Source of the DNA: an uncultured Pseudomonadales bacterium
GTDB taxonomy: Bacteria > Patescibacteriota > Microgenomatia > UBA1400 > MFAQ01
DNA length: 64,000 nt
Assembly: GCA_964586045.1 (NCBI GenBank)
Contig: CAZPFY010000001.1
Span: forward strand, 154 to 64,153
Direction: 5' to 3'
The first letter of the stretch is position 1. The number at the start of each line of letters is the position of its first letter. The notes below the pieces were generated by a model that had not been told where the DNA came from, ran no database searches, and saw nothing but the letters and a program-made list of their open reading frames with translations. A program made the position numbers and the translations under genes. This document shows positions 28,001 to 51,565 of this stretch, piece after piece.

Positions 28001-31000
28001 GCTAGGATTGTTGCTTATTCCGCCCGTGCCACCGTTGTAGCCGGCAGAGTTTGTGTTGACAGTAGTTCCGGTGGGAACAGTTACGGTGCCGCTAGCGCGG
28101 AAGAACATAACACCACCTTTGGGAGCGGTCCAGACTGAGGCGGTAAAGTCAGTTCCGGCATTGGAGAGAGTAACGTCGGTGTAATTGGGAACACGTTGGA
28201 GCATGACACGTTGATTGGTGGTGGCGGTACCAAGATTGGTGTCGTTGCCTGGATCATCGCCGTAGGTTTTATTTTTGGCTGTTGTAAAAGTAATGGTTGA
28301 GGTAGAGACAGAAGCAATTCTTAAAGTTTCGTAGTTGCCAACATTTAAATATTTTGTAGAAGTACCCTGAAGATTGATAAGAAGGACTTCATCGCCGGCG
28401 GATAAACAGCCGGTGGATGGGGTAGTGGAAAGGGTAGCAGTCGTGGGAGTGAGAGCGGTTACTGAATAATTGACAGCGTCTCCACCATCGGCGCAAGAGC
28501 GACCAGTAATCGAATTGGCGGTATTGATGTTGGTGTCAGTAGTGATAGCGATGGCACCATCAGAACCGGTACCATAAACATAAGTGCTACTGAGGGCAAT
28601 ATTGGTAGTTTTGAGTTTGTTGGTTGATGACGAAGTGGTATTTACCATAGCCAGATCCTGGTTGGTGGTTGTAGTCCAGTCAGAGATTTTTTTCCAAAGT
28701 GAAGTCACTGTATCGTAGAACCAACCGGTAAGAGAAAGGTCATTTGTGTTTTGATTGTGAGCAATTTCAACGTAACCACCACTTAAAGTTGCCGATTGAG
28801 TGGAGTAAGCGGTCATATCCATGGCAAGGCGGTGCCAGACAGAGTCTTGGCCATACATGAAGAGACTGCCGGTGTTGCCAATGGTGTGAACGTTGTTTAG
28901 ATTTCCAGAAATGGTGGCGCTGTTGTAGTAAATAGATCCAGCAACGCCGGTGGGGATAGCGGTTAAACTTTGGAGGGTAATAGTGCCGGAGTCATTGATG
29001 CGGAATTCGTCGCCACCAGTTGAATTCGTATTAAATGAGAGATACGTAGTTCCAGCGTCACTGATTGTTGATGAGCCAATTAAAGCTGTACCGGTAGTAC
29101 CATTACCAATTGTCAAGGCTGGGTTGGCGGTACCATCTATGGTTAGGGTACTAGAAATTTTAGCGTCTCCATTGACATAAAATTCCATATTGGATGGCAT
29201 CGAATTGGTTGAATCTCCAACTCTTAGATTACTAGTTACATTCCATTGGGTCCCTGCGGTTCCTGTAAGTTGGCGATTGGCAATACTAATTTGTTCGACA
29301 CCCAAGTGGTTGTTGATACCTTGGCTTAGAAATAGATTTTTCCAAGCTGTGCCACTAATGCCCAAAGTTGTTTCATCGTTTGCTCCTGGAACCAGATCGC
29401 CACTGTTTAGGATTTTAAGAAAAGTTAATAAGCCAGCATCACCACCCTGAGAAGTGGCAAAAGATAAATCAGCTCCGTTGAGAACGTTAATGGTTGGACT
29501 TGCTCCTCGGAAAGTAAGAGATCCTGAAGTGGAAGCATCTCCGGCTACATCAAGTTTTGAGGTTGGGGTGGTTGTACCTATTCCAATGTTGCCGGTGCCA
29601 TTGGGGTTGAGGAGAATGTTACCGGTGGTATTGTAGGTGCTGGAATTTCCGAGAGTTAAAGTTTGGCGGCGGGTTGTTCCCAAAGTTCCATTGCCGGTGA
29701 GGTAGGTTGTTCCGGCGATACTGGCAACTGGGGTGCCAAGATTGTTGTTTAGAAAAGAAAAGTTGGCACTGAGTGTTGACTGGCCACCGACGAGTAAATC
29801 AAGGGTAGAGTTTTTGGGGTAGATGGCCCCGTTGCTTGAAAGCCAATTTTCGGCAATGTTTTGGTTAGTTATTTCAGTGTCGAGATCTTTGAGGACGCCT
29901 TGAACAGTGAGAGAGTTGCTGTTTGAAAATTCATCGAAAACACCGATTAAGTAAGCACCACTGTCGTTGTTGGCAGTAGATTCGGCAAGGGTGGTGGTGC
30001 CACCAAAGATTAAATTGGCGGCGGAATTGATTTGAAGGCTGCTGGTATTGGATATGTATACGTTGCCTCCTGCGGACTGAAGGCTGAGGTTGCCAGCCAC
30101 ATCGCTAATGGAGTGGGCAACGCCATTGATCATGTTAATGGCGCCAAGATTACTAATATTAAATTTGGTGATACCAGAGGCTGAAGCACTGAAGAGTGAT
30201 CCTGTGCCGTTTTGATTTACAGTGAGTGCTGAAGTAACAGCAGAACCGGTTGCGGTATTGATGCTAGTACGGCCATCTGCTAAAACCCAAAACTTTGCAG
30301 ATTCAGTTGCCCCGGAAGAAAGTAGAATGAGTTTGCCGCTACCGGTGGCGATATCATTACCAATATATCCTGACAATAGAGAACCAGTTGTCAAATTTGC
30401 ATTTGTAGTTCTAAAAGTGTCTTCGGTAGTAGTGCCGCCAATTGCTAAAATTTGGCCGGACCCAATAGCGTCTGGTTGAATAACAATGTCTCCACCAGAA
30501 TTGGTGGCTGTTGTTAAAGAAATACTTTGGCCCTTGAGATTAAAATTTCCTGATGTTGAAACGATGGATGGTGAACTGGCGGCGATATTAAGATTGCCGG
30601 AGTTGTCAATTACGGGGACAGTGTTGATAGTTGCAGATGCTGACGCAGGATACCCCTGGAGGGTTTCGGAATTGAGGGCGTAGCCGACGGTGGCAATCTG
30701 TTGTCTGGGGGTAAGGGTTTCGGCGCCGACAGTAACTGCTAGGTAAACATCGCGATTATCACTAAAGACAGATTGGGGAATTTCACTGCCACAAACGCTG
30801 TCGCCTATGAGACTGTTAAAAACACCGTCGGAGTCCGGGGTAACAGAACAAGTACCGGTGGTATATAGTTGGCTGCCGGCGGTAAGATGATTCCAAAGTT
30901 TGAAATTGACATTGACGGCAGTGTTAATTGGAGTTCCAGATGAATCGGAGAGTCTGCCCTGGAAAGAAAGTTGTCTGCGGGGGGCGGTTAGAGAGGTGGC

Positions 31001-31891
31001 GGCTGAGCTGGGTTTGGCTTGTTTGATGATTTGGTTGTAGCCCAAAATGCCCATGGTGGTGGTAGCGATTACAAGCAAGGCGAGATGGAAGTAGGGAGTA
31101 AAAGGAAGGGCATTGTACTTGTGGTAAAAAACTGCCAAACGGCTTTTGGAGGGATTCTGAGGGTTTTTGGGTTTGGGAATAAGGCGATTGAGCCAGGCTA
31201 AGGGAGTAATTTTGGCTTCGGTTACGGTAATTTCAAAAGGATCCTTGGGAATTAGACTGCGGTTAAAACAAAAGTGAGTAAGCTTTTTAATAGATGATTG
31301 TCGTCTGCTGATAACAGAAGAGCTGGCGCGGGTTAGTTTTAGATAAGCAATGTAACTAGCTAATTGTTCGGTACTTAAAACTTGTTCGAGGTGGCTAGCG
31401 TTAAAAGGAGTTTGATTGGCAATCCAAGAAAAATAGTGATAAAGATCTGAAAGATAGTTTTTGACGGTAGAATGAGTTTTCTTTTCGTTTATTAATTGTT
31501 GTTTGAATTGTTCAAGAATTTTTTTGCTTGAAAGGTCCTTATTGTTGTTTGCATTGTTTGATGTATTTGGAGTTGGTTCGGATAAAGTTTCTATTTTGGT
31601 GATTTGATACTTGATGTTTAAGAAATTGGATAGTCTTCTGATGGAAGCAAGTCTGCGATTGGTGGTTGCGGGTGGTGTGAGAGTAGAGGATTGTTCCTGA
31701 CTGTATTTGCTGATGTATATTGATAGGTTTTGAAATACTTCGGTAAGATTAAACTGCTTTTGAGATTCCAAAAAGCGAAGAAAGTGCCTAACATCACTAA
31801 GGTAGTTTTTTATGGAAACAGCTGAAAGCCCAGACTCAATAAGAAATGAAGTGAAGAGCTTTAGGATTTCGGTATTGTTGGGCAGGTTCAT
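22046..31891 (-). CDS. giant (3281 aa) surface protein: two tandem integrase core-binding-like N-terminal domains, TM anchor, Gly-rich beta-helix-like regions, internal ~750-aa tandem duplication, C-terminal fibre-like region
   Basis: Uninterrupted 9.8-kb ORF. The two core-binding-like motifs are SIKNYLSDVRHFLRFL and TVKNYLSDLYHYFSWI. The TM is FHLALLVIATTTMGILGY. There are long GGGGG/GGAGG tracts and duplicated modules (ETLRIASVSTSTITFTT... / ETLRISSLAGNVITFTT..., and YFEDEDITN... / YFEDEDEATV...). Confidence 0.85.
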   Translation of the reverse strand: MNLPNNTEILKLFTSFLIESGLSAVSIKNYLSDVRHFLRFLESQKQFNLTEVFQNLSIYISKYSQEQSSTLTPPATTNRRLASIRRLSNFLNIKYQITKIETLSEPTPNTSNNANNNKDLSSKKILEQFKQQLINEKKTHSTVKNYLSDLYHYFSWIANQTPFNASHLEQVLSTEQLASYIAYLKLTRASSSVISRRQSSIKKLTHFCFNRSLIPKDPFEITVTEAKITPLAWLNRLIPKPKNPQNPSKSRLAVFYHKYNALPFTPYFHLALLVIATTTMGILGYNQIIKQAKPSSAATSLTAPRRQLSFQGRLSDSSGTPINTAVNVNFKLWNHLTAGSQLYTTGTCSVTPDSDGVFNSLIGDSVCGSEIPQSVFSDNRDVYLAVTVGAETLTPRQQIATVGYALNSETLQGYPASASATINTVPVIDNSGNLNIAASSPSIVSTSGNFNLKGQSISLTTATNSGGDIVIQPDAIGSGQILAIGGTTTEDTFRTTNANLTTGSLLSGYIGNDIATGSGKLILLSSGATESAKFWVLADGRTSINTATGSAVTSALTVNQNGTGSLFSASASGITKFNISNLGAINMINGVAHSISDVAGNLSLQSAGGNVYISNTSSLQINSAANLIFGGTTTLAESTANNDSGAYLIGVFDEFSNSNSLTVQGVLKDLDTEITNQNIAENWLSSNGAIYPKNSTLDLLVGGQSTLSANFSFLNNNLGTPVASIAGTTYLTGNGTLGTTRRQTLTLGNSSTYNTTGNILLNPNGTGNIGIGTTTPTSKLDVAGDASTSGSLTFRGASPTINVLNGADLSFATSQGGDAGLLTFLKILNSGDLVPGANDETTLGISGTAWKNLFLSQGINNHLGVEQISIANRQLTGTAGTQWNVTSNLRVGDSTNSMPSNMEFYVNGDAKISSTLTIDGTANPALTIGNGTTGTALIGSSTISDAGTTYLSFNTNSTGGDEFRINDSGTITLQSLTAIPTGVAGSIYYNSATISGNLNNVHTIGNTGSLFMYGQDSVWHRLAMDMTAYSTQSATLSGGYVEIAHNQNTNDLSLTGWFYDTVTSLWKKISDWTTTTNQDLAMVNTTSSSTNKLKTTNIALSSTYVYGTGSDGAIAITTDTNINTANSITGRSCADGGDAVNYSVTALTPTTATLSTTPSTGCLSAGDEVLLINLQGTSTKYLNVGNYETLRIASVSTSTITFTTAKNKTYGDDPGNDTNLGTATTNQRVMLQRVPNYTDVTLSNAGTDFTASVWTAPKGGVMFFRASGTVTVPTGTTVNTNSAGYNGGTGGISNNPSDGGESYCNANGGGGGADYDNNPVGSVGICGGGGGGGVNAATLYNANIAGSSIGGAGGGGGSAGAATGASGYGYGGGGAGGGYGTIGNGGKSGNTPTSDGVNGSGVTSGNGGTSAWTTTTGPAYAGGGGGGGTYGDTYLDKAYFGSGGSGGGAGDTGTTTYVASNGGAGGKGGGILMISAATLSVTSTGGIQSNGGAGSAAATATYPGSGGGGAGGSVKIVADTVTTSTTDLITAAGGAGDTTAVDGGTGGVGRIAVSYKNTLTANSSEPDFPTSPYLHQSGYYGIYVSKEINTTGAVNLNSFAYTETLNTYGQVEAQTRTGNTPDSTDGSWEAWKPVVTTTNIKNLNAMDATADWTATNLNAVADGTLARNVNYFEDEDITNAANKSIKLGSVGAENGYAEDTITSTDLTNFDLISAWVYATASGQIKLGIGESAATEQEEIIQIDATGTWQKVYWDISDVASASKNAITKLRITLLSPNQTVYVDSLQSEELIVASGTAPTSTPKNYFQYRFILTSSNGQATPSISNISLTYSDGASHTIDASSIRLANSTDYYSSSHLTVSETALSALSNSGITSNATGVTQAGDYDPGNGADGAGTVTSGTKVLSTDSIVGRTCADAINYSVNTLTSTTATLSTIPSTPSCLKTGDEILLINLQGTQGSIVNVGNYETLRISSLAGNVITFTTSKGKYYGDGAGDDTNLGIGVNNQKVMLQRVPNYTSVTVDSSATLSPSAYDYTTGLGGVLFFRAISAVSVAGSINATGKGYPGGTGAISTTTRSIPGHSLFYTSGVDGDGGTPLTPNNLGQNGVYSGGGGGGRHLTDGIGTGGVGTSTTGAGGGGGAGSASSNGSSYNGYGGGGGGGGYAAGGSGGTGPTIASNGDTNQSGSGTSGGSVGSGFGGGGGGGGAGNYGESSLGKLYLGSGGGGGGAGQATTGTYYSGLAGGGGGGIVIINSDTISVSGSILSKGDDSLTGTAASTQGGGGAGAGGSIKILGNTLSLGSSLVSSNGGAQIAGLSNFEGGSGGDGRVAIYYASTLTGTTSPAAAVAQTPSYNYSMYISEEMPTPNSTGYNKIKWLADLDTYGMIELQTRSGKSANSIDGTWEAWKPVVANTNKLDVIDMNTDTLWGMVDLTRADGGVARNVDYFEDEDEATVGNMTKFSSVGSPNGYSETTVTAKDLTNYDYLTAWVYATSSGNLVKFGFGESTGTEQEKTFYIQAANTWQKIYWDLTDINTTNRNAVTKLRISLPSTNTTLYVDNITADRYLTNADGSTVSSTPNEYFQYRAILTTTNPAYHPTLRSVQLDWSNGFKIVQTDMNTVRLYNKTGETIQIRLDAVVYGADLAEWYTVEDPSIEAGDLVAITGKTDPFGVPILRKTSSPNDQYLVGAISTKAGQELGITAENRRLLGLAGRIPVKIDPSSQDIKAGDSLTSSPLPGFATKAMPNDKVIGTAFEDWIPNIGKGVVLIHINNGIAPNPTTFSSRVYRLISNTNELFDETAGRFVNTVGSFAKVITGSISTNQLVSPTIETSFLTPMASTASITISPNLLSDNTQPLLIVEGQIKASTVFAKQGNFDELNTNSIVTNTITADKIYANQIEGLDAKIASLSSSFNNEEITILTNQISLKLNQNHATSSSSIASEIINNLKLGSNIVMNLLIDNLTVQQKLITPIADIDQLKVNIATVSGTLYANNIKSETIDKLKAQLDVLNEKYSTASSIFASIQEKYSQYDSLFSALDSETNPTNDPLQLSSLATESASLPTDMAFKNLNIEVLTTNDILANGSIFSQSISSFGTDLFIQPSGDKPVHLLANLMTLYPNGQIVVDGDLIVTGNIFANNLDTRTATVSGTLAVGKGELATDSAKILALFNQDGNVVGSVDASGSANFDKLTTYGLVIASGNNLDSTISGQTSSNSTIGTASIATGSSEIFINSSKINDDTLVYITPISDTNNQVLFVKSKQSHVGFTIAIPQPIEDEISFNFWLVQTK
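24000..28550. repeat. approximately 2.3-kb tandem duplication (two copies) within the second giant gene, including Gly-codon (GGN) rich tracts
   Basis: Two homologous ~750-aa protein modules with matching order of motifs. The plus strand shows CCACCACC runs at about 25.0-25.7 kb and 27.3-28.0 kb. The boundaries are approximate. Confidence 0.55.
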
Positions 31892-40059: not shown

Positions 40060-41178
40060 ATGCAAAAAAGGGTTTTTGCATTAGTCTTGTTACTTGTTTT
40101 GAGAATTATTATCGGTTTTGTTATTAATGCCAGATACTATCAATTTGAACAAATTAGAGTTACGGGAAAAGTGATCAGAGTGATTCAGATAGATAATAAC
40201 TGCATCATAGATTTGGGAGTATTTAGAGCAAAGATGGAGAACCGATGCGCCTTTAAAAAAGGCGAGTTTGTGAGGGTTGTTGGCAGACCTACAGCTGGTT
40301 TGATAGAGCTTCTTGGGGGTAAAATACTCTTGAACACGGCGATATTTGATTATTCTGAAAATAAGGATTTACTTGTTATGAGATTTGATTTTTGGCAGTC
40401 CACTTTTGGGCGACTGAGAGATTATTGCAGAGAAGTTTACCAAAGATTGTTGCCTAGGAACGAGTCGGCTTTGCTTGCGGGAATAGTTTTGGGGGATAAA
40501 GAAAGTATAGGCTATGATTTTTATCAGAATATGGTGAGAAGCGGAACAATCCATGTGGCTGTGGCCTCTGGATATAACTTGATGCTGGTGGGGGGAGTTA
40601 TTTTGAATTTGTTGTTTTGGATTTTTGAAAGGAAAAAAGCTACGATCTTTGCAGTTTTGGCCATGGCTTGTTATGCGGTTCTGGCGGGGTTTGAGCCACC
40701 TGTGGTGAGAGCTTTGATAATGTCGAGTTTGTTGCTTGTTGGCGCAGTGTTGGGGAGGAAGACAGCCCCTGTTTGGTTTTTAATAATTAGTGCTTGGGTA
40801 ATGCTGGTTTGGGACATGGATTTGCTTTGGAATGTTAGCTTTCAGCTTTCGGTTATGGCAAGTGTAGGGTTAATGGTGTTTGCGCCTTGGGTACAGGAAA
40901 TATTTAGGATAAAGGGGTTGGAGAAGGAAGGAATTGGTTTGGAAAAATTCGGCTTAATAACAACGGTGTGCACTATGTTGGCAACGGCACCAGTTATTTG
41001 GTGGCATTTTGGTAGAATAAGTATAATAGGCGTATTTAGCAATGTTTTTATATTGCCACTTGTCCCTCCAGTAATGATTCTTGGAGTTTTCACACTACTT
41101 ATGCCCGGACTGTTTTTTGTGCCTACTTATGCTCTGGTCCATCTTATGGTTTTGATAATTAACTTTTTTGGAACTTGA
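40060..41178 (+). CDS. comEC: ComEC/Rec2 membrane competence domain (N-terminal DUF4131-like plus Competence domain), a separate ORF from the MBL domain
   Basis: LLAGIVLGDKESIGYDFYQNMVRSGTIHVAVASGYNLMLVGG matches the ComEC competence-domain motif. It is polytopic. Confidence 0.8.
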   Translation: MQKRVFALVLLLVLRIIIGFVINARYYQFEQIRVTGKVIRVIQIDNNCIIDLGVFRAKMENRCAFKKGEFVRVVGRPTAGLIELLGGKILLNTAIFDYSENKDLLVMRFDFWQSTFGRLRDYCREVYQRLLPRNESALLAGIVLGDKESIGYDFYQNMVRSGTIHVAVASGYNLMLVGGVILNLLFWIFERKKATIFAVLAMACYAVLAGFEPPVVRALIMSSLLLVGAVLGRKTAPVWFLIISAWVMLVWDMDLLWNVSFQLSVMASVGLMVFAPWVQEIFRIKGLEKEGIGLEKFGLITTVCTMLATAPVIWWHFGRISIIGVFSNVFILPLVPPVMILGVFTLLMPGLFFVPTYALVHLMVLIINFFGT

Positions 41179-41242
41179 CATAGATATTTTAAACCTATAA
41201 AATACTAGACAATTGAACGTAAATTGAAATTGGGAGGTACAA

Positions 41243-41431
41243 ATGCTGAGAGATTTGGCGGAGTCGCTGTTTTTTTTGGGAATGGTGGTTGTTATTATTA
41301 AGTTCGGTTGGCAGCTGGTAGACTGGATTATGAGCATGCTGTACGTTCTATCTTTTGGATGCTGCCTGGGTATTGTGGCTTTGATTGGGGGAGCCATATA
41401 TTTCTTTGGAAATAGAGAAAACTTTTTTTAA
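41243..41431 (+). CDS. small hydrophobic ORF between the two comEC parts
   Basis: 62 aa, two hydrophobic helices. It may be a remnant of the ComEC membrane region in a different frame. Confidence 0.3.
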   Translation: MLRDLAESLFFLGMVVVIIKFGWQLVDWIMSMLYVLSFGCCLGIVALIGGAIYFFGNRENFF

Positions 41432-41473
41432 TCTCACCTGATTTAGGTGGGATTTTTTGTGGCAAAATAAACT

Positions 41474-42902: not shown

Positions 42903-43014
42903 AAGAGCTCCTTTTGTGAAAGAATTTTGGCTATTTTAGCATGGTTTGGGGAAATATGATACAATATAGGATGACTTAAGCAGTCGTATCTTTGAATAAA
43001 TTAGGAGGTGTAAC

Positions 43015-43359
43015 TTGAGGAGAACAAAGTCGTGGTTGCTTTTAGTGTTTCTGTTGATTGTATTGGTTTCGATTTCGCCCCTTTTTAGTTTTTTGAAGGA
43101 TTTGGCTAAGACCTACCCCTTGTTGTATGTCTCATTGTTTTTGACCTTTGTGGTTGTGCTCCGAATGTTTCCGAGAGGTCAAAATTACCGAACTTTTTCG
43201 GGAGACTTCTGGAAAATGATTTCGACCGTTCTGTTGATTGGTGTTGTTGTTGGCACATTTTTTTCCAGTTTTCTTTATGGATTAATATCTTGGTCTTTAA
43301 TCTGCAGCTTTTTGTATTGGTGGCATGTTTATAGCTTACCTACGAAAAAGACAGGGTGA
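43015..43359 (+). CDS. hypothetical membrane protein (3-4 TM helices)
   Basis: 114 aa, strongly hydrophobic, followed by a terminator. Confidence 0.45.
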   Translation: MRRTKSWLLLVFLLIVLVSISPLFSFLKDLAKTYPLLYVSLFLTFVVVLRMFPRGQNYRTFSGDFWKMISTVLLIGVVVGTFFSSFLYGLISWSLICSFLYWWHVYSLPTKKTG

Positions 43360-43366
43360 GTTGGTT

Positions 43367-43400
43367 ATATCCCGCTTGCGATTTTGCAGGCGGGATTTTT
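43367..43400 (+). terminator. rho-independent terminator
   Basis: ATCCCGC...GCGGGAT hairpin followed by TTTTTG. Confidence 0.6.
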
Positions 43401-43575
43401 GTATCAAAAAAGTAATTTTATTTTGATTTGCTCACACAAAAACCGAACGCTATTTCGCCAGCGCGAAATCCGTTCTTGTTTGCAGCCAAAAATCCCGCCT
43501 GAGCGGGAACCAGCTTTTTGGCTTTGCGCAATATTTTTGTTTTGAGTAAATCGAAATGTTATTTTTTGATATCTG

Positions 43576-44865
43576 TTGGGTTACAATTATCAAATGAGAT
43601 TTGCGCCAAAAATTCACAAGATAGGAAACCTAAAAGTCGTTCTGGTTCCAGAAGATAGAGAGTCGGTTACGGTTCGGGTGATGATTGGGACGGGAAGCCG
43701 AGAGGAGACGGATAAAGAGGCTGGTTCGGCGCATTTTTTGGAACACTTTGTATTTAAGGGGACCAAAAAGTTTCCAGGAATGTATGACATCAACGAGGCG
43801 GTGGAAAAAGTAGGCGGTGCCTTTAATGCTTACACTGGCCAAAACGAAATGGGCTTTTGGGTGAAGATGGCCAAGAATCATTTGGAGACAGCTATGAGTA
43901 TTGTGGCTCAGGTAGTAACCGAGCCACTTTTGCCTGAAGAACACTTCGATAAAGAGAGGGGGACGATATTGGAAGAACTACACATGTATGAAGATCGACC
44001 AAGTAGTAAGGCGGCAGAGGAATGTGGCAAATTGCTTTTTGGGAAAACAAATATGGGAAGACCAATAATTGGGACGGTGGAAAGTTTGAATGCCATGTCA
44101 GTTACTGATTTGCGAAATTATTTTGACAAATGGTTTGTGGCCGAAAATATTACGGTGGGGGTGGTGGGAAGTTTTGGTGATGAGAATAGGGTAATAGAGT
44201 TGATCAAAAAAGAATTTGTTAAATTGGTTGAAGACAAGAGAAAATTACCGATGAAAAATAAATTTATTTGGGAAAAGAGTGAATCAATAAAGACAAAGTT
44301 GGTTAGTCGTAAAGTAGAGCAAGCGGCGGTAGTAATGGCTTTTAGGGGAATTGATATGAATGATGAACGACGATATTCGCTAGAACTTCTTAATATTATT
44401 TTGGGGGATGGGTGGACATCTCGATTGATGCGAGAAGTGCGAGAGGAAAGGGGTTGGGCTTATGCTTTGGGGTCGGATGTGGATCAGTTTACGGATGCCG
44501 GGGAAATATTTATCGGAGCTGGTTTGCCAAAGAATAAATTAAAAGAGGCGGTTAACTTGATTACGGAAATTTGTTACGGATTGGGAGAGCCAAAAAGTAA
44601 ATGGGTGATAAAAGAAGAGGAGCTAAAGGTAGCAAAAGAGTGTTTTAGGGGGAGGATGGCTTTGGCGATGGATAAGCCGGAAAATGTACTAGGTGAAGCA
44701 CTGGATGATGTTACTTTTCGGGGTCATATAATGAGTCCAGAAGAGACGTTGGAGAAGATTGAGAGTGTGAACCTATCGGAGACATTAGAATTGGCCAGAG
44801 AGCTTTTAAAGGAGAAGTATTTAAGCATTGCCGTGGTGGGAGATTATACGAAGTTACCGTTTTAG
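43576..44865 (+). CDS. M16-family zinc peptidase (insulinase/pitrilysin-like)
   Basis: 429 aa. The inverted zinc motif HxxEH is present as GSAHFLEHFVFKGT, with the downstream Glu-rich region expected of M16. Confidence 0.9.
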   Translation: MGYNYQMRFAPKIHKIGNLKVVLVPEDRESVTVRVMIGTGSREETDKEAGSAHFLEHFVFKGTKKFPGMYDINEAVEKVGGAFNAYTGQNEMGFWVKMAKNHLETAMSIVAQVVTEPLLPEEHFDKERGTILEELHMYEDRPSSKAAEECGKLLFGKTNMGRPIIGTVESLNAMSVTDLRNYFDKWFVAENITVGVVGSFGDENRVIELIKKEFVKLVEDKRKLPMKNKFIWEKSESIKTKLVSRKVEQAAVVMAFRGIDMNDERRYSLELLNIILGDGWTSRLMREVREERGWAYALGSDVDQFTDAGEIFIGAGLPKNKLKEAVNLITEICYGLGEPKSKWVIKEEELKVAKECFRGRMALAMDKPENVLGEALDDVTFRGHIMSPEETLEKIESVNLSETLELARELLKEKYLSIAVVGDYTKLPF

Positions 44866-44875
44866 GCAAAAAATT

Positions 44876-44898
44876 GCCTCCCATAAGGGAGGTCTTTT
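44876..44898 (+). terminator. rho-independent terminator after the M16 peptidase gene
   Basis: GCCTCCCATAAGGGAGGT hairpin followed by CTTTTCG. Confidence 0.6.
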
Positions 44899-45052
44899 CG
44901 ATTGGGAATCTGCAAGGGTTAGGGTATTCAATACTTCATGAGTAAGCTCCGTTGCACGGCCTTATCGGCAATTAGTCCGGTTACGCTGGAAAGCGGCCAC
45001 CTGGTTTTTTGAATCAGTTAGGAGCAAATGGCTCCATACCAGGGTGCTAATA

Positions 45053-45110
45053 GGTAGTATTATAACCTATAGTTGCTAATTTGTCAAGTTGGGGAATTTT
45101 TGGCAAAAAA
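45053..45110 (+). repeat. conserved intergenic motif copy A (GGTAGTATTATAACCTATAGTTGCTAATTTGTCAAG, then TTTTTGGCAAAAAAA)
   Basis: Near-identical ~35-bp motif found four times in the window. It may be a promoter or operator. It is immediately followed by a bidirectional terminator-like hairpin at 45112-45165. Confidence 0.6.
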
Positions 45111-45615
45111 ATAACCTGTGTCCATCAGCTTTCGCTATTGATGACTACAGGTTTTTTTGGTTTCGGCTTAAGTATCCGTAACGTTGGCGGCCGCGCTCCC
45201 CACTTTCTGGCGTCCCAACGTGTTAGGTCCTTTATCGCTTCTATGTGTCCTGGGAAGAGGATACTCTGATGAATGTGGAATCTCAACAGATGTCAATTTC
45301 TCCCGATCACCACTGAAAAGCGGTGTTTTAACTTGTCCAAACTACTCTACGCTCCGAGGTTAATCGGGCACTAAGATTCCTTTTTAAGGCCGCTTAATAG
45401 AGATTTACGCTTGGTGATAAGTTTGCTGGACTACGGTGCATAGCCCCACAGGCCTCGTCAATGGACGTCTTACCTTACCTGTGGGGCCACAATATCATTT
45501 TGATTTTTAATGCTCCTTTTTTACACCGGCTCGGCCGGGCTATTGAGGCGCGACTTTGTGCACCAAGGCTTTTTTTGAACCTGGGTTGTAAGAGGGGCGG
45601 GTTGCCCTTCTTGAT

Positions 45616-45674
45616 GAGGTTATTATATCTCATAATGTATCTGTGTCAATAACTAGTTTTTTTGGCAAAAAAAA
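45616..45674 (+). repeat. conserved intergenic motif copy D (divergent; TATTATATCTCATAATGTATCTGTGTCAAT, then TTTTTTGGCAAAAAAAA)
   Basis: Shares TATTATA, CTATA/TCATA, TGTCAA and the TTTTTGGCAAAAAAA extension with copy A. Confidence 0.45.
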
Positions 45675-46131
45675 TGCCAGGTAAGCGATGCAAGCGCGAT
45701 AGTGTCTCGACTAATCTGAGCCACTATGGTTGATATCGTCAGTACCTGGCAGGCCGGTTTTCGGCTGATGGCGACTCTCGTGAGTATCCCCCGAGAGAGT
45801 GCGAACCCATACGAATGGGTTATTCACCGTTATTAGCGGTGCAGCTTTTAAACTCATTGATTGACTCAGCGGGGGATTCCCGTGAAGTGCTTCAGATGAA
45901 GTTTCGCAATTGGGATAAGAATCTATATCACAATTTTGAGCTGCACGAGGGCTTTTCTCCTTTCTTTTCCGCTCAGGGGCGGGTTATTGCCGGCGATCGT
46001 GCCGGACTGTTTTTTTGTGTCCATCGACGCAGGTTCCTGCCTGGAGGGCGAGGATATCGGTGGACGGTGCAGTTTGGCGGATTTTCCGTTCGGGATAGTC
46101 GTTCAAGAGCATCCCTTATCAAACCAAATAT

Positions 46132-46167
46132 GGGAGTATTCTAGCCTATAGTTGCTAATTTGTCAAG
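46132..46167 (+). promoter_or_regulatory. conserved intergenic motif copy B, probably overlapping the promoter of the 46208 gene (TTGCTA, 17 nt spacer, TAGAAT)
   Basis: GGGAGTATTCTAGCCTATAGTTGCTAATTTGTCAAG, with TAGAAT 17 nt after TTGCTA. About 40 nt upstream of the ATG. Confidence 0.5.
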
Positions 46168-46207
46168 ACGATGGTAGAATTGGCCATCCTAATAGTTTGG
46201 AGGAACA

Positions 46208-46450
46208 ATGAAAATTAAGCTTGGTATTACTGGTTTGTATCTGTTTGTTTTGGCGGCCGTTCTGTTTCTTGCCAAAACAATTGATTTGCCTTACGGGTAT
46301 ATCCCGCAGTGGGCCGGATACATTGGTTTGGGGTTGATGTTCCTTGGTATCGTGTTCATGGCCATTGATTCTGGTCCGTGGAACAGAATCAAGAAATCAG
46401 GCGATCACGATGCACCGTTTCGGATAAGGAAGCCAAAAAAAGAAGAGTAA
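46208..46450 (+). CDS. small membrane protein (2 TM helices)
   Basis: 80 aa with a GGAGG RBS, followed by a strong terminator. Confidence 0.5.
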   Translation: MKIKLGITGLYLFVLAAVLFLAKTIDLPYGYIPQWAGYIGLGLMFLGIVFMAIDSGPWNRIKKSGDHDAPFRIRKPKKEE

Positions 46451-47155: not shown

Positions 47156-48208
47156 ATGGATAAAAATAATTTACAAAACGATGCAGCTTATGAGGTAGCT
47201 TCAATGAAGAGTAGTGCCAGGTATTGGTTTAAGCGAGATTTTTGCGACATTCGACATGGTAAGGACAGATCGATTTTGATTGCTTTGGAAAAGGCTGGTT
47301 GGAGTGGTGATAATGGGTTGGGTCAATTGCCTTGGAACATCCGAGTTGAGGACAAAAGGTCTTTTCAGGCTTGGAAGTTGGGAATTTTGAGTATTAACGG
47401 TGAAGATAAATTGGTTTTTGAGAGATTTTTGAGAGGTATAAGCGGAGTTAAAACAGATACATTTAATTTATCTTACTTGCCCAATTGGATAATTGAGGAG
47501 TTGGAGCAAGTGGCTTTGGAAATAACTCAGAGGGATTTCGAAAAAGAAGCAGGTGAGTTTGTGGAGAAAATAGCGCGACAAGCAAAAGAGGAAAAACAAA
47601 GTCAAAAAGCAACTTTGTCGGCTAAAGTAGAAGAACTATCGATTGGTGGTTTATTTCATATCATGTCGCAGACGCGAGGCGACGAGAGGGGAAGTTTTCG
47701 GGAGGTAGCCAGAATGCCGGAAATAGAACTTTTGACGGGTTATGATTTTGTGGGGAAGCAAGTAAATCACTCAATGTCCACCTATGGAATTTTGCGAGGG
47801 ATGCACGTAGAACCTTGGGCAAAACTGGTAACGGTGATTCATGGTTTTGCGGTTTCTGTTTTGCTTGATTGCCGTTTGCATTCCAGAACCTATGGCAAGA
47901 TGGAGACTATCTTTTTGGGTTATGGAAAAGCACCGGACGGAGAAGAAGTAAAAGGAGGAGCCCTGTTTATAGAGCCAGGAATTGCGAACTCTGTTTTGGT
48001 TTTATCTGAGAAGATGGATTATCAATATGTAGTTGATGATTTGTGGAGGCCTGAGACAGCACTTTACTCGGTTAATCCCATGGATTCTGAACTAGCAATT
48101 GATTGGGGCAAATATGTGTCTTTGGACAAAATAACCAGGTCGGAAAGAGATACCAAGTCGCCAACATTCGCTGAGTTTACTAAATTAATGAAAGAAAATG
48201 GAAAATAA
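47156..48208 (+). CDS. two-domain protein: unknown N-terminal domain plus C-terminal RmlC-like cupin (sugar-nucleotide epimerase/isomerase-like)
   Basis: 350 aa. The C-terminal half has DERGSF, then LRGMHVEPWAKLVTVIHGFAVSVLLDCR, then ALFIEPGIANSV, then AIDWG, matching the RmlC-like order. Confidence 0.55.
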   Translation: MDKNNLQNDAAYEVASMKSSARYWFKRDFCDIRHGKDRSILIALEKAGWSGDNGLGQLPWNIRVEDKRSFQAWKLGILSINGEDKLVFERFLRGISGVKTDTFNLSYLPNWIIEELEQVALEITQRDFEKEAGEFVEKIARQAKEEKQSQKATLSAKVEELSIGGLFHIMSQTRGDERGSFREVARMPEIELLTGYDFVGKQVNHSMSTYGILRGMHVEPWAKLVTVIHGFAVSVLLDCRLHSRTYGKMETIFLGYGKAPDGEEVKGGALFIEPGIANSVLVLSEKMDYQYVVDDLWRPETALYSVNPMDSELAIDWGKYVSLDKITRSERDTKSPTFAEFTKLMKENGK

Positions 48209-48569
48209 AAATATGAAAGTAGTTGCGGTTGATTTTGATGGGGTAATTCACAAATATTCTAAGGGTTGGGGCGATGGCAGTATTTACGATGTTGCGGTTG
48301 AGGGGGCAAGCGAGAGTTTGGAAAAATTGGTTGCTGACGGATGGAAGGTAATTATTTTTACTACCAGACTTAATCCAGAAGTTAATGAAGATATTTTGCT
48401 GGAGAGAAATAAAATGATGAAGTGGTTACATGATAATGGTATTATTTTGAATCGACATTTTCACGAAATAACGGCGGTGAAGCCATCGGCGAAATATTAT
48501 ATTGATGACAAAGGGATTCGGTTTACTGACTGGGAGGCAACTATCAAATTTGTAAGCGAAAATGCCTGA
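48198..48569 (+). CDS. small HAD-superfamily hydrolase (nucleotidase/phosphatase-like)
   Basis: 123 aa. HAD motif I is VVAVDFDGVIH. A Lys/Asp-containing C-terminal motif (YIDDKG) is consistent with motif III/IV. Confidence 0.55.
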   Translation: MENKNMKVVAVDFDGVIHKYSKGWGDGSIYDVAVEGASESLEKLVADGWKVIIFTTRLNPEVNEDILLERNKMMKWLHDNGIILNRHFHEITAVKPSAKYYIDDKGIRFTDWEATIKFVSENA

Positions 48570-49173
48570 AGTACAAGAAATGTTTGTTAGTGAAGAGAGT
48601 GAGAAAACAGATGAGCTGTTGCGAATAGTGAAAGAGACGAAAAATATGCGTGGTGAGCCGATATATGAAAATTCTGAAATTAGTTTGCGCGAGTTTGACC
48701 CCAAAGATTTACATCCTTCGGCGGTTTATATGTTGGAAGCTAACTTAGAGTTTCTTGAGGCAATGTACTATGACTTGTTTAAAGAAGGAATCGATATTTT
48801 TAATTTGGATCAAATTGTCGAAACAGAGAAATATGGCAAAATTGCTCCGCCAATTGTAGAGATGGCAGTAGATGAAAAAGGTAATCGGGTCCCGACAATA
48901 GTGGATGGAATTCATAGGTCAAAACTAGCGATGTATTTGGGAAAGAGAATAAAAGTGGTTTTGATTGATGGGGTTAACCCTGATTATCCCTTGATTGGTT
49001 TGCCGGCTGATTGGGATGAGGTCAAAATTTACAGAGGGAAGCCTCAGGCTGAGCCAGAACTGAGAAAGTTACGACCAGGCATGGTGGGATTGGAAGACAA
49101 AAGCCATCTCTTTAGAAATCTGGAGCCAGTGGGGGCGAACAAGAGACAGTTGATGGCTTGGCAGAAGGGGTAG
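48562..49173 (+). CDS. ParB/sulfiredoxin-fold (ParB-like nuclease domain) protein
   Basis: 203 aa. PPIVEMAVDEKGNRVPTIVDGIHRSKLAMYLGKRIKVVLIDG contains the DG.HR signature of the ParB N-terminal domain. Confidence 0.45.
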   Translation: MPEVQEMFVSEESEKTDELLRIVKETKNMRGEPIYENSEISLREFDPKDLHPSAVYMLEANLEFLEAMYYDLFKEGIDIFNLDQIVETEKYGKIAPPIVEMAVDEKGNRVPTIVDGIHRSKLAMYLGKRIKVVLIDGVNPDYPLIGLPADWDEVKIYRGKPQAEPELRKLRPGMVGLEDKSHLFRNLEPVGANKRQLMAWQKG

Positions 49174-49321
49174 GTGAGTTGACTTTTGACCCATAGTGTG
49201 ATAGAATACCCAATCGAGGAAGTTCATTGATTTAATATGTTTTAGTTGTCATTTTCTCTTGTTTACGCTCTTCTAAAAGAATGCGTGTGATAAGAAAAGA
49301 TGGCTAATTTGCGGAGGCAAA

Positions 49322-50140
49322 ATGGCAGATTGGAAGGAGTTGCTTGCCCAGTGGCAGCAAAATATTGAACGTAAATACCCAAAGTTGGTTGGAACGAAGG
49401 CGCTGCTTGGTGTAGCTGCCTGGTATAACCGTGTTCTTAACGAATTGGGTGACTACACCATTGAAGAGGCACCGATGGAAGATGCTCTCTGGAAAGTGGT
49501 TCACGATGACGACGGCAAACATTTGCGCATTGAGAGATACGATGGTACTTTTTTTAGAGTTATCAGCGTACTTTGTCGCAAGGGTAAGTCTACTTGGCTA
49601 CAGCCGGTACTGGAAAGCATCCATTCGCTCATGAAAGTGGTGTTGTGGGGTGAAGAGGTAGAGGTGCCGGTTTATGGACTGTTGATGGTCATTCGTGACA
49701 GTGAAGGCAAGATTTTGCTATCAATAGGCCAAGAAACCATGGCTGATACACCCAAGAAAGCGGTGGTTAGATTGCCCCTGCAAGCATCTTGGGGAAAGAT
49801 TTTGTTGATGCTGGCCGGGAAGGCGAGTGATGTAAGTATCGAAGCCTTGATGGCGATTTATGACTGCCAAACCGTGCAAGAGCTGTTAGCCCTTGCTGTC
49901 GAAAGAGGGCGAGAGCCTTTTGAGGATTTAGATCGTGGTTGGAAAAACAATGTCGTTTGGATTATGCCGACCGTACAGGTTGGTACCGAACTTCACGAAA
50001 AACTGACCTCGAACGGATCCATGATGTGGGTTGATCCTTTGCAGTGGAAGATTATCAAGATGTCGGGACTGACGGGTTTGCATACAGTTGGTCCTATTGA
50101 CATGATGTACACGTTGGATGCTCTGAAGGAATACGAGTAA
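49322..50140 (+). CDS. hypothetical protein (noticeably higher GC and Trp content than neighbours)
   Basis: 272-aa ORF with no recognizable motif. Local GC is visibly higher than the window average. Confidence 0.45.
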   Translation: MADWKELLAQWQQNIERKYPKLVGTKALLGVAAWYNRVLNELGDYTIEEAPMEDALWKVVHDDDGKHLRIERYDGTFFRVISVLCRKGKSTWLQPVLESIHSLMKVVLWGEEVEVPVYGLLMVIRDSEGKILLSIGQETMADTPKKAVVRLPLQASWGKILLMLAGKASDVSIEALMAIYDCQTVQELLALAVERGREPFEDLDRGWKNNVVWIMPTVQVGTELHEKLTSNGSMMWVDPLQWKIIKMSGLTGLHTVGPIDMMYTLDALKEYE

Positions 50141-50149
50141 TTTTGTTGA

Positions 50150-50180
50150 GACTGTCTTTGATTAGGCAGTCTTTTTTTTG
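50150..50180 (+). terminator. rho-independent terminator
   Basis: GACTGTCTTTGATTAGGCAGTC hairpin followed by TTTTTTTT. Confidence 0.75.
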
Positions 50181-50386
50181 TGCCAAAATTTAGTTTAAAA
50201 AAAAGAATCCCCGCTCTGGAGCGGGGTTCGGTTGGGGTGAAGTAGGTTGCTTGGCCTAAGTGTCTGTTGTCGCACCGTCGAAACGCAACAGTGGGGCTTA
50301 GCGGGCTCTAATCACACCCTTTTGGGTATGGAAGGAGGGGGAACCTCCTTTTTCGGGGCTGGATTTCCAGCAAAAGTTAAGTTGTA

Positions 50387-50421
50387 GGAGTATTTTATCC
50401 TATAATTGTTTATTTGTCAAC
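50387..50421 (+). promoter_or_regulatory. conserved intergenic motif copy C upstream of the 50525 gene
   Basis: GGAGTATTTTATCCTATAATTGTTTATTTGTCAAC is the same motif as copies A and B. Confidence 0.45.
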
Positions 50422-50524
50422 TTGGGTGGCTTGGGGCGATATTTATGATATCTTGTGCCTAAAATATGACAACTGATATGACAACTGACGAAATGTACTT
50501 GACAACTATATTTAAACTGTTAAA

Positions 50525-51565
50525 ATGTATTGTATAAGTATGACCATACAAGATCAGATAATAAAAATCGCAACAAAAGAGGGAACTGTTAGGACCGCTG
50601 ATGTTTTAAAGAGTTTAAAGCCTGCGGTAACTAGGGGATACTTGAGTTTAATAATGTCTCGAATGACAAGAGATGGTTTGCTAGTGAAAACAGGATCAAC
50701 TTCAAAGTCTGTATATGCTTTGTATAAAAATGGAGATTTGCTGGGAAATGTCTTTAAAAAGCATTTGGCTAGAAGCACCACAAAAGAACATGAAGTACTG
50801 GATGTGCTTAACAGAAAAGTGCCTTTTTTGTTTAAATTGGATGAAAACTTGAGAAGCATTTTGGATTTTTCTTTTTCTGAAATGTTAAATAACGCCTTAG
50901 AACATTCTGAATCAAAGTATATTGACATTAAGGTATTTGTTGATTCTAAATACCTGAATTTTACTGTGTCTGACCTTGGTATTGGTGTTTTTAAAAATGT
51001 AATGAAGAAGAGGGGTTTGGGGTCGGAATTCGAGGCCATGCAGGATATTTTGAAAGGAAAAACTACCACTCAACCCCATGCACATTCTGGCGAAGGAATC
51101 TTTTTTACTTCAAAAATGGCTGACATATTTGTTTTGGAAAGTTATGGATACTCGATGAGAGTGGATAATATAATTCCTGATATATTTTTTGAGCAAGTTA
51201 AACCGATTAAAAAAGGAACGAGAGTGCATTTTTGCATTAGAAGAGAGACTGATAAACACTTGAAAGATACTTTTATGAACTACGAAACTGATCACGAAGA
51301 TCCCGATTTTGACAAAACAGAGATTCACGTAAAACTATATAAAATAGGCACGGTTTACGTATCTCGATCACAAGCTAGGAGAATTTCATATGGTCTTGAG
51401 AAGTTTAATCACGTTGTTTTGAACTTTGAAAAAGTACCAACTATCGGACAAGCTTTTGCAGACGAGATATTTAGAGTTTTTAAAAATAAATATCCAAATA
51501 TTTTGATTACCTCTATTAATATGAATGAGGCGGTTAAGTATATGGTTAATAGAGCGAGTAAATAG
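50525..51565 (+). CDS. HATPase_c (GHKL, anti-sigma-factor/RsbW-like) ATP-binding protein with N-terminal wHTH-like region and C-terminal STAS-like (DUF4325-like) domain
   Basis: EMLNNALEHS (N-box), VSDLGIGV (G1) and SGEGIFFTS (G2). The C-terminus VVLNFEKVPTIGQAFADEIFRVF is STAS-like. Confidence 0.5.
   Translation: MYCISMTIQDQIIKIATKEGTVRTADVLKSLKPAVTRGYLSLIMSRMTRDGLLVKTGSTSKSVYALYKNGDLLGNVFKKHLARSTTKEHEVLDVLNRKVPFLFKLDENLRSILDFSFSEMLNNALEHSESKYIDIKVFVDSKYLNFTVSDLGIGVFKNVMKKRGLGSEFEAMQDILKGKTTTQPHAHSGEGIFFTSKMADIFVLESYGYSMRVDNIIPDIFFEQVKPIKKGTRVHFCIRRETDKHLKDTFMNYETDHEDPDFDKTEIHVKLYKIGTVYVSRSQARRISYGLEKFNHVVLNFEKVPTIGQAFADEIFRVFKNKYPNILITSINMNEAVKYMVNRASK

Follow-up and report, generated by a model that had tools for sequence, protein, structure and literature searches.

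What is carried by the 1.3 kb that separate an M16 peptidase gene from the next protein gene in a 64,000-nt stretch of contig CAZPFY010000001.1 (here called the window, within which all positions are counted)? An earlier sequence-only reading had proposed one or two genes for non-coding RNA (ncRNA), or the remains of a mobile element, as opposed to mere spacer. We think it likely that the region holds three tandem ncRNA genes on the minus strand, each with its own promoter and terminator, and that they belong to a mosaic set of cassettes found in a subclade of Candidatus Collierbacteria. This reading draws on promoter- and terminator-bounded units without open reading frames (ORFs), on fold stability, on conservation above the neutral level and on the lack of protein signal. 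The structured ncRNA interpretation is therefore retained, with the count changed to three and all genes assigned to the minus strand. The host lineage was taken from homologues of the M16 protein, which place the window in Collierbacteria (Microgenomates, part of the Candidate Phyla Radiation, CPR, or Patescibacteria); an exact match of this protein is present in JGI, ENA, NCBI and Logan assemblies.

The non-coding interval extends from 44866 to 46207, bounded by the stop codon of the M16 peptidase gene (44865) and the ATG at 46208. As had been claimed, it holds no convincing ORF: the longest on the minus strand is 53 aa, and the single longer one, 109 aa on the plus strand (45815-46144), lacks a Shine-Dalgarno (SD) sequence, has no Pfam match and finds only itself among 5.8 billion proteins. 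A protein hidden by an alternative genetic code, also raised before, was not found; no stop-free stretch exceeds 163 codons if any one stop codon, or the pair TAA and TAG, is taken as sense. All three stop codons occur 5-10 times in each minus-strand frame of the region, and the flanking genes use the standard code. When six-frame peptides of the region were compared with 45 Collierbacteria loci, the single match was the copy of unit B (see below) at locus L002, and it appeared in all frames, which indicates conservation of nucleotides and not of protein; this comparison served also as a pseudogene test, and no protein remnant was seen in any frame. The interval has a GC content of 0.467, where the window as a whole has 0.426 and the flanking genes have 0.39-0.42; this modest but real rise of ~4-5 points bears out the elevated GC noted earlier.

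A consensus scan places three promoters of the sigma-70 type on the minus strand of this interval, such that transcription would run from right to left through three units, A, B and C. Downstream of each promoter lies an ORF-free stretch and then a minus-strand hairpin with a T-run. The predicted features are as follows, together with a back-to-back plus-strand promoter and a fourth unit, D, located beyond the 1.3-kb region.

46138..46166, minus strand: promoter of unit A, with TTGACA (46166-46161), a 17-nt spacer and TAGAAT (46143-46138), matching 11/12 consensus positions.
45667..46131, minus strand: RNA of unit A, ~465 nt, with its start put ~7 nt past the -10 box.
45674-45667, minus strand: T8 run at the 3′ end of unit A, after a long terminator stem in which 45751-45743 pairs with 45683-45675.
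45622..45649, minus strand: promoter of unit B, with TTGACA, a 16-nt spacer and TATAAT, 12/12.
45105..45615, minus strand: RNA of unit B, ~510 nt, with a conserved core (45252-45615) and a diverged 3′ part of ~110 nt.
45152-45114, minus strand: terminator of unit B, ACCUGU...ACAGGU, then a T7 run (45111-45105).
45059..45087, minus strand: promoter of unit C, with TTGACA, a 17-nt spacer and TATAAT, 12/12, within the repeat copy 45053-45088.
44868..45052, minus strand: RNA of unit C, ~185 nt, ending at the hairpin CCUCCCUUAUGGGAGG (44892-44877) and a T6 run (44873-44868).
46152..46180, plus strand: promoter of the 80-aa membrane-protein gene, with TTGCTA, a 17-nt spacer and TAGAAT, and with a TG element.
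50190..50420, minus strand: unit D, with promoter TTGACAAATAAACAATTATAGGATAAAAT (50420-50392), an RNA of ~195 nt (expected from near 50385 to ~50193) and terminator CCCCGCUCCAGAGCGGGG with a T8 run.

Two of these promoters fall in the stretches previously flagged as promoter-like (45053-45110 and 45616-45674), which do contain promoters at 12/12 positions; these lie on the minus strand, and the third (11/12) joins them at 46138-46166. The hairpin at 45112-45165, formerly read as a bidirectional terminator, exists, and its role is now that of intrinsic terminator of the minus-strand unit B. At its hairpin, CCUCCCUUAUGGGAGG, unit C shares a terminator with the M16 gene, which converges on it. 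Promoters C and A are held by the two copies, 92% identical, of a 36-nt repeat (45053-45088 and 46132-46167, respectively), and the right-hand copy forms a back-to-back promoter for unit A on the minus strand and, on the plus strand, for gene 46208-46450, whose product is an 80-aa membrane protein of two helices. In the 64-kb window, TTGACA-N16-18-TAnAAT occurs at four minus-strand and three plus-strand sites, and four of the seven precede units A-D. The more specific promoter type TTGACA-N10-TATRGGNTANAAT occurs, among the loci fetched, only before such units, and in the window only at A, C and D. Unit D itself has no Rfam match and no homologue in the fetched loci. A genome this compact devotes 1.3 kb here to three units, whose promoters are among the best matches in the window, and this strongly hints at an important RNA-based role.

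The region had been described as hairpin-dense, and this holds: 400-nt sliding windows over 44800-46400 fold at -100 to -122 kcal/mol with z of -2.5 to -4.8, whereas most windows over flanking coding sequence fold at -35 to -90 kcal/mol with z between -2 and +2. All hairpins named earlier are found at their coordinates; the one near 45810 lies within unit A, and the one at 45441-45490, with its T-rich run, is internal to unit B and is not a terminator on the transcribed strand. Taken singly, unit A has a minimum free energy (MFE) of -149.9 kcal/mol and a fold z of -4.98, and the fold z is -3.12 for unit B, -3.71 for unit D and -3.58 for unit E, a shorter unit type of related loci.

Units of the A1, A2 and E types share a predicted architecture in which a long hairpin (P2) and a linker are followed by a GC hairpin of 5-6 bp (P3, CCGGC-N6-GCCGG), a C-rich linker and then, 3′ of P3, a module made of SD-like GAAAGGAG or GGAGG, 4-10 nt and AUG or GUG. 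A looser form of this SD/start module is present in the B and F units. The corresponding features of units A and B are these.

46019..46065, minus strand: hairpin P2 of unit A, GUCCACCGAU...GUCGAUGGAC.
45990..46005, minus strand: hairpin P3 of unit A, CCGGC-ACGAUC-GCCGG, better conserved than any other element of the A/E family.
45923..45962, minus strand: SD and mini-ORF of unit A, with AAGGAG (45962-45957), GUG (45946-45944), 7 codons and UAG (45925-45923).
45475..45518, minus strand: SD and mini-ORF of unit B, with AAGGAG (45518-45513), AUG (45498-45496) and 7 codons, MILWPHR.
45441..45490, minus strand: internal 14-bp hairpin of unit B, GUGGCCCCACAGG...CCUGUGGGGCUA.

The P3 stem is retained in 8/8 sequences, one of them with a broken closing pair, while its loops differ. 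P2 of L045_A2 folds as in unit A, with a U.G to U-A change; in the A1 units P2 is unrelated in sequence to that of A2, with the same predicted shape at the same position. In L002 the 14-bp hairpin of B shows one compensatory change (G-C to A-U) and one U-A to U-G change. Over the local consensus helices of B, pairing survives 2 compensatory and 5 one-sided changes, and the G-U pairs fit the minus strand. The E and A1 units have fewer changes in paired than in unpaired columns (Fisher p = 4e-5 to 1e-2). These comparisons of modelled folds suggest that the structure of the units is conserved. All four A1 units carry GAUC in the loops of both P2 and P3, and L002 carries UCGA in both, partly within the stem; such palindromic loops faintly hint at a loop-loop contact.

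The mini-ORFs following the SD element range over 4-20 codons, with a 51-codon version in L052, and their peptides are not conserved, so that it is the SD/start element, not the peptide, which appears to be kept. In unit B the SD-to-AUG spacing of 14 nt is long for a functional ribosome-binding site.

Conservation in relatives, which the sequence-only reading had proposed as a check, is present. Over ~375-390 nt, unit B and its counterpart in L002 are 83-84% identical, a figure that is 81% when only the aligned core columns are counted; stretches of 27-50 nt are perfectly conserved despite an average divergence of 19%. For the same pair of genomes, identity is 41% at four-fold-degenerate sites of the M16 gene, 41% in the promoter spacer and 39% in the 3′ ~110 nt of B. 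Both the -35 and the -10 hexamers of the B promoter are retained in L002, with the spacer between them identical at 7/17 positions, and most of the conserved sequence of B falls outside its 7-codon ORF. Unit E gives a similar picture between L042 and L048, with 91% identity over 257 nt versus 36% at four-fold sites. Seven genomes have a recognisable core of unit A, at this locus only; the homologous units are in L001, L002, L045, L108, L042 and L048.

The surrounding gene order is conserved: comEA, comEC, a metallo-beta-lactamase gene, the M16 gene, a variable segment, a gene for a treble-clef zinc-ribbon protein, a tRNA gene, a gene for a TPR protein and dprA. Between the M16 and zinc-ribbon genes, at least 10 related genomes hold one to three minus-strand cassettes (L001, L002, L004/L054, L042, L045, L046, L047, L048, L052 and L108). 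Most of the closest relatives examined, with M16 identities of roughly 74-88%, carry cassettes; L003, L050 and L057 have none at the locus. In many relatives the segment is empty or is filled by genes for dTDP-sugar isomerases or by giant ORFs. The cassettes are thus probably lineage-specific, confined to one variable locus in a small CPR clade, as judged from these genome comparisons.

Several observations weigh against three functional ncRNA genes. Nothing akin to the units was found in Rfam or, in the searches made, beyond this small clade. Unit C has no detected homologue and a weak fold z of only -1.07. Covariation is thin, as the comparisons of structure rest on 2-6 homologues per unit type: the two-sequence alignment of B is not significant against its shuffle control (121/500), pairs changed between homologues are mostly broken when taken from single-sequence MFE folds, and in B conservation is no higher in paired than in unpaired columns. 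Close relatives differ in whether they have cassettes and in the order of these. The A1 units of L001 and L045 are 75% identical, in genomes whose four-fold sites are 82% and whose M16 genes are 95% identical. This divergence, the changes in order and the mosaic similarity between units together imply that the history of the cassettes is not vertical, and the high identities of B and E may then partly reflect recent exchange and not purifying selection. Patchy substitutions and the randomised spacer and 3′ tail speak for selection acting as well.

The region could also be read as decaying DNA. The cassettes would then be debris, either horizontally acquired or mobile remnants or pseudogenes, in which strong promoters and terminators happen to survive and from which transcripts without a function of their own arise. 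The mosaic and variable cassettes keep the mobile-element remains proposed earlier in play, while the dismissal of plain spacer is supported. The locus is indeed a variable hot spot, with M16 adjoining sugar isomerase genes, giant ORFs or the zinc-ribbon gene elsewhere; cassettes differ in number and order (A-B-C in the window, B-A in L002, A-F-G in L108), similarity between units is mosaic, the A1 units of L001 and L045 outpace synonymous sites in divergence, and global MFE structures are not conserved. Decay would not, however, be expected to leave 81-91% identity in the B and E cores when synonymous sites have reached saturation at 36-41%, nor perfect runs of 27-50 nt in B against a mean divergence of 19%, nor promoter hexamers and terminators retained while spacer and 3′ tail are randomised; there is, moreover, no protein remnant in any frame and no recombinase or transposase nearby. 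We regard debris as unlikely.

The SD/start module raises a second alternative, that the units are micropeptide mRNAs or dual-function RNAs whose product is the mini-ORF after the SD-like sequence. The position of the module is in its favour, since GAAAGGAG or GGAGG, followed by AUG or GUG, is placed alike within the A1, A2 and E units and, loosely, also in those of types B, F and C, and in L052 a 51-codon ORF opens at that start. The ORFs of 4-20 codons nevertheless vary in length and sequence among close homologues (MTLDHVSLNPDE versus MTLDHDCLNSRSGKKARCL; MASLDKY versus MVSEDKY, where all changes are non-synonymous), the bulk of conserved B sequence lies outside its ORF, the spacing in B is long, and the 51-aa ORF of L052 has no database homologue. 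A peptide product is accordingly improbable.

A further alternative takes its cue from the gene on the other side of the A promoter: the units would be RNAs like those of type I toxin-antitoxin loci, controlling the divergent small membrane protein. The 80-aa gene and unit A do diverge from a shared promoter region, small membrane-protein genes that are homologous or analogous stand back to back with a unit in L046 and L042, and type I loci typically have RNAs in tandem that evolve fast and are strongly expressed. On the other hand, the longest stretches of complementarity between the units and mRNA 5′ regions are 6-10 nt, as is also seen in shuffled controls; there is no overlap of the predicted transcripts, PADLOC gives no match, and the protein exceeds the usual size of type I toxins. 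In L001, L002 and L004, moreover, the units directly follow the zinc-ribbon gene with no membrane-protein gene between. We consider this very unlikely.

Hardly to be believed is the last alternative, highly diverged known RNAs (RNase P, tmRNA, 6S, SRP, RNAs of the OLE/ROOL/GOLLD type or riboswitch leaders) missed by the models: the sizes would be compatible (~185 nt for 6S, 400-500 nt for RNase P or large ornate RNAs) and CPR RNAs are often divergent, but Rfam gives no match in the region at E<=10 beyond chance-level hits and none at the gathering threshold in 12 related loci, ARAGORN finds no tmRNA, housekeeping RNAs would not vary in presence or order among close relatives, and the units cannot be leaders because none is followed by an ORF ahead of its terminator.

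The searches behind this statement used Rfam 15 (4227 models, among them RNase P, 6S, SRP, OLE, ROOL, GOLLD, raiA, HEARO, riboswitches and ribozymes). At the gathering threshold they return two tRNAs for the whole window and nothing else; at E<=10 the region matches only eukaryotic microRNAs and snoRNAs and the cis-regulatory DapZ, all at chance level. The tmRNA candidate was set aside with ARAGORN, which reports only two tRNA-Ala genes. No identity with tmRNA, RNase P, SRP, 6S or rRNA had been recognised by eye, and Rfam and ARAGORN, without a match in the region, agree. The sequence-only reading had let an empty Rfam result tell against it only jointly with, among other things, a lack of conservation; since relatives do conserve the units, it stands despite the absence of an Rfam match.

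Other candidates were tried and rejected. Units C and D, at ~185-195 nt, are of the size of 6S RNA; their MFE folds are multi-hairpin and not rod-like, and Rfam has no 6S match. A CRISPR array or tandem-repeat RNA of the ToxI kind was dismissed, the only repeats being the 36-nt promoter repeat and short terminator motifs. An integron-like array was dropped as well: Pfam finds no recombinase among the neighbours, and the junction motif of a T-run and GCCAAAA is a general terminator feature of the genome. A proposed homology of unit C to unit E came down to a 12-nt identity that is not significant.

Outside the clade, blastn in distant mode against phage and plasmid collections gave no match, and patterns made from the conserved blocks of B and E had 0 matches in viral contigs. 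The P3 hairpin pattern matched viral contigs by chance only, in those of high GC, and the promoter pattern matched 32 AT-rich phage contigs, which represent unrelated generic strong promoters. A metagenome scan with the combined P3 and SD pattern returned 49 loci, all but one evident chance matches and nearly all in high-GC contigs. The exception, L091 (Ga0163144_10031302, 53% GC, ~8088, minus strand), has the exact hairpin CCGGCACGATCGCCGGCAAT, AAGGAG and the ATG of a real-looking ORF, and is probably due to chance too. Literature searches on ncRNAs of Patescibacteria and Collierbacteria found nothing relevant.

If the units are ncRNA genes as we favour, how might they act? They may yield abundant, stable RNAs that work in trans. 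The SD-like/start module would most likely recruit the 30S subunit or a protein, peptide production being an unlikely purpose, and such recruitment could either titrate a factor or, in the manner of STAB-SD elements, make the RNA more stable. The palindromic GAUC and UCGA hairpin loops may mediate loop-loop contacts. Recombination would reshuffle cassettes between lineages of these naturally competent organisms. A comparison by RNAduplex with all translation-initiation regions in the window yielded only uninformative long duplexes. No specific mechanism, whichever is chosen, earns more than a tentative place. It is likewise a speculation, and a doubtful one, that the units form an undescribed, CPR-specific class of modular RNA genes, strongly expressed, structured and 200-500 nt long, swapped between lineages at one hot spot and sharing a module (GC hairpin with palindromic loop, SD mimic, start codon) that engages ribosomes or proteins; in organisms whose protein-based regulation is minimal, such RNAs might titrate ribosomes or factors, or self-associate.

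CPR bacteria (Patescibacteria) have tiny genomes and few regulators, and to our knowledge almost nothing is known of their ncRNAs. Should they be confirmed, the A/E and B families would count as new large ncRNAs of bacteria and come with a comparative series in at least 10 genomes, and cassette exchange between lineages, if true, would be an unusual mode of ncRNA evolution.

Some further observations concern the neighbourhood. Pfam and PADLOC scans of the neighbours found no defence gene, and the Pfam scan no recombinase or transposase. The zinc-ribbon gene (PF13451; 51590-51772, minus strand) carries an in-frame tandem duplication of 15 nt. In L001, L002, L004, L042 and L047 it directly precedes the promoter of an RNA unit; in the window ~5 kb of accessory genes part it from the units. 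The accessory block (48198-51565, plus strand) encodes a 123-aa protein, a ParB-CE domain protein, a 272-aa protein and a protein with HATPase and DUF4325 (STAS-like) domains; it is missing from most relatives and gives no PADLOC matches. The arrangement of a membrane-protein gene divergent from an RNA unit recurs with an 86-aa homologue in L046 and with a 111-aa membrane/zinc-finger protein in L042. Just 3′ of the M16 stop codon, short tandem repeats (ctgtgaact / ctgtgatct) occur in L001 (7285-7330) and L045 (6190-6245).

Elsewhere in the window, two small membrane-protein genes lie on the plus strand, each followed by a strong terminator. The first (41244-41431, ~62 aa, in 41175-41470) has a consensus promoter at 41175; for the second (43015-43359, 114 aa, in 42936-43400) the site at 42936 matches the promoter consensus at only 9/12 positions. 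A second structured RNA region at 43200-43600, suggested by a z peak, was rejected, as the peak stems from terminators of the latter, a real gene. Two giant ORFs occupy the minus strand at 9271-19608 (3445 aa) and 22046-31891 (3281 aa). The motif T5-G(G/C)C-A5+ (TTTTTGGCAAAAA or TTTTTGCCAAAAA) occurs 13 times in the window versus 1.3 expected and mostly adjoins terminator hairpins (e.g. 41456, 44860, 45097, 45659, 50175, 59607 and 61689); it is apparently a terminator or UP-element feature that occurs genome-wide and is not specific to the cassettes. On the plus strand the GC skew is persistently positive across the window (~+0.2 to +0.6), and ~0 over the RNA units. This is reminiscent of a disparity in composition between strands that has been reported from a Microgenomates genome (PMC7143001).

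By tests of family membership the units fit no named family, and they are classed here as orphan bacterial ncRNA genes; they nevertheless resemble several known systems in part. Like the type I loci tisB/istR-1, zor/orz and shoB/ohsC, they pair an ncRNA with a small membrane-protein gene divergent from overlapping promoters, at loci that are duplicated and variable. They differ in a complementarity not above chance, in a protein of 80-111 aa and in the several related loci where units stand without a protein gene.

RNAIII of Staphylococcus is a 514-nt RNA that encodes delta-haemolysin, and in STAB-SD elements, as in Bacillus cryIIIA, an SD sequence stabilises the transcript at its 5′ end; SD binding of the 30S subunit without productive translation could stabilise a transcript. 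The units are likewise long and structured, with an SD sequence and a start codon at a conserved position. Unlike hld in RNAIII, the mini-ORF peptide is not conserved, and in contrast to STAB-SD stabilisers the SD module is set back by 110-190 nt from the 5′ end and not close to it; ribosome binding is here a prediction.

Small RNA (sRNA) genes such as LhrC1-5, Qrr and the Yfr genes of Prochlorococcus stand alone in tandem arrays or, for Yfr, in hypervariable genomic islands. The units are like them in that each copy has its own promoter and intrinsic terminator, that copies lie in tandem where a small genome is variable, that their phylogenetic range is narrow and that they diverge quickly. 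Units A and B are, however, 4-5 times longer than typical sRNAs, and the units do not relate to each other as simple paralogues.

With OLE, ROOL, GOLLD, raiA and HEARO, finally, the common ground is size (~465-510 nt for A and B), strong predicted structure, orphan function and a variable or mobile context. The differences are that no covariance model matches the units and that these are confined to one genus-level clade. ROOL, GOLLD and OLE form multimeric assemblies held by RNA-RNA contacts, and the palindromic loops of the present units hint at something similar.

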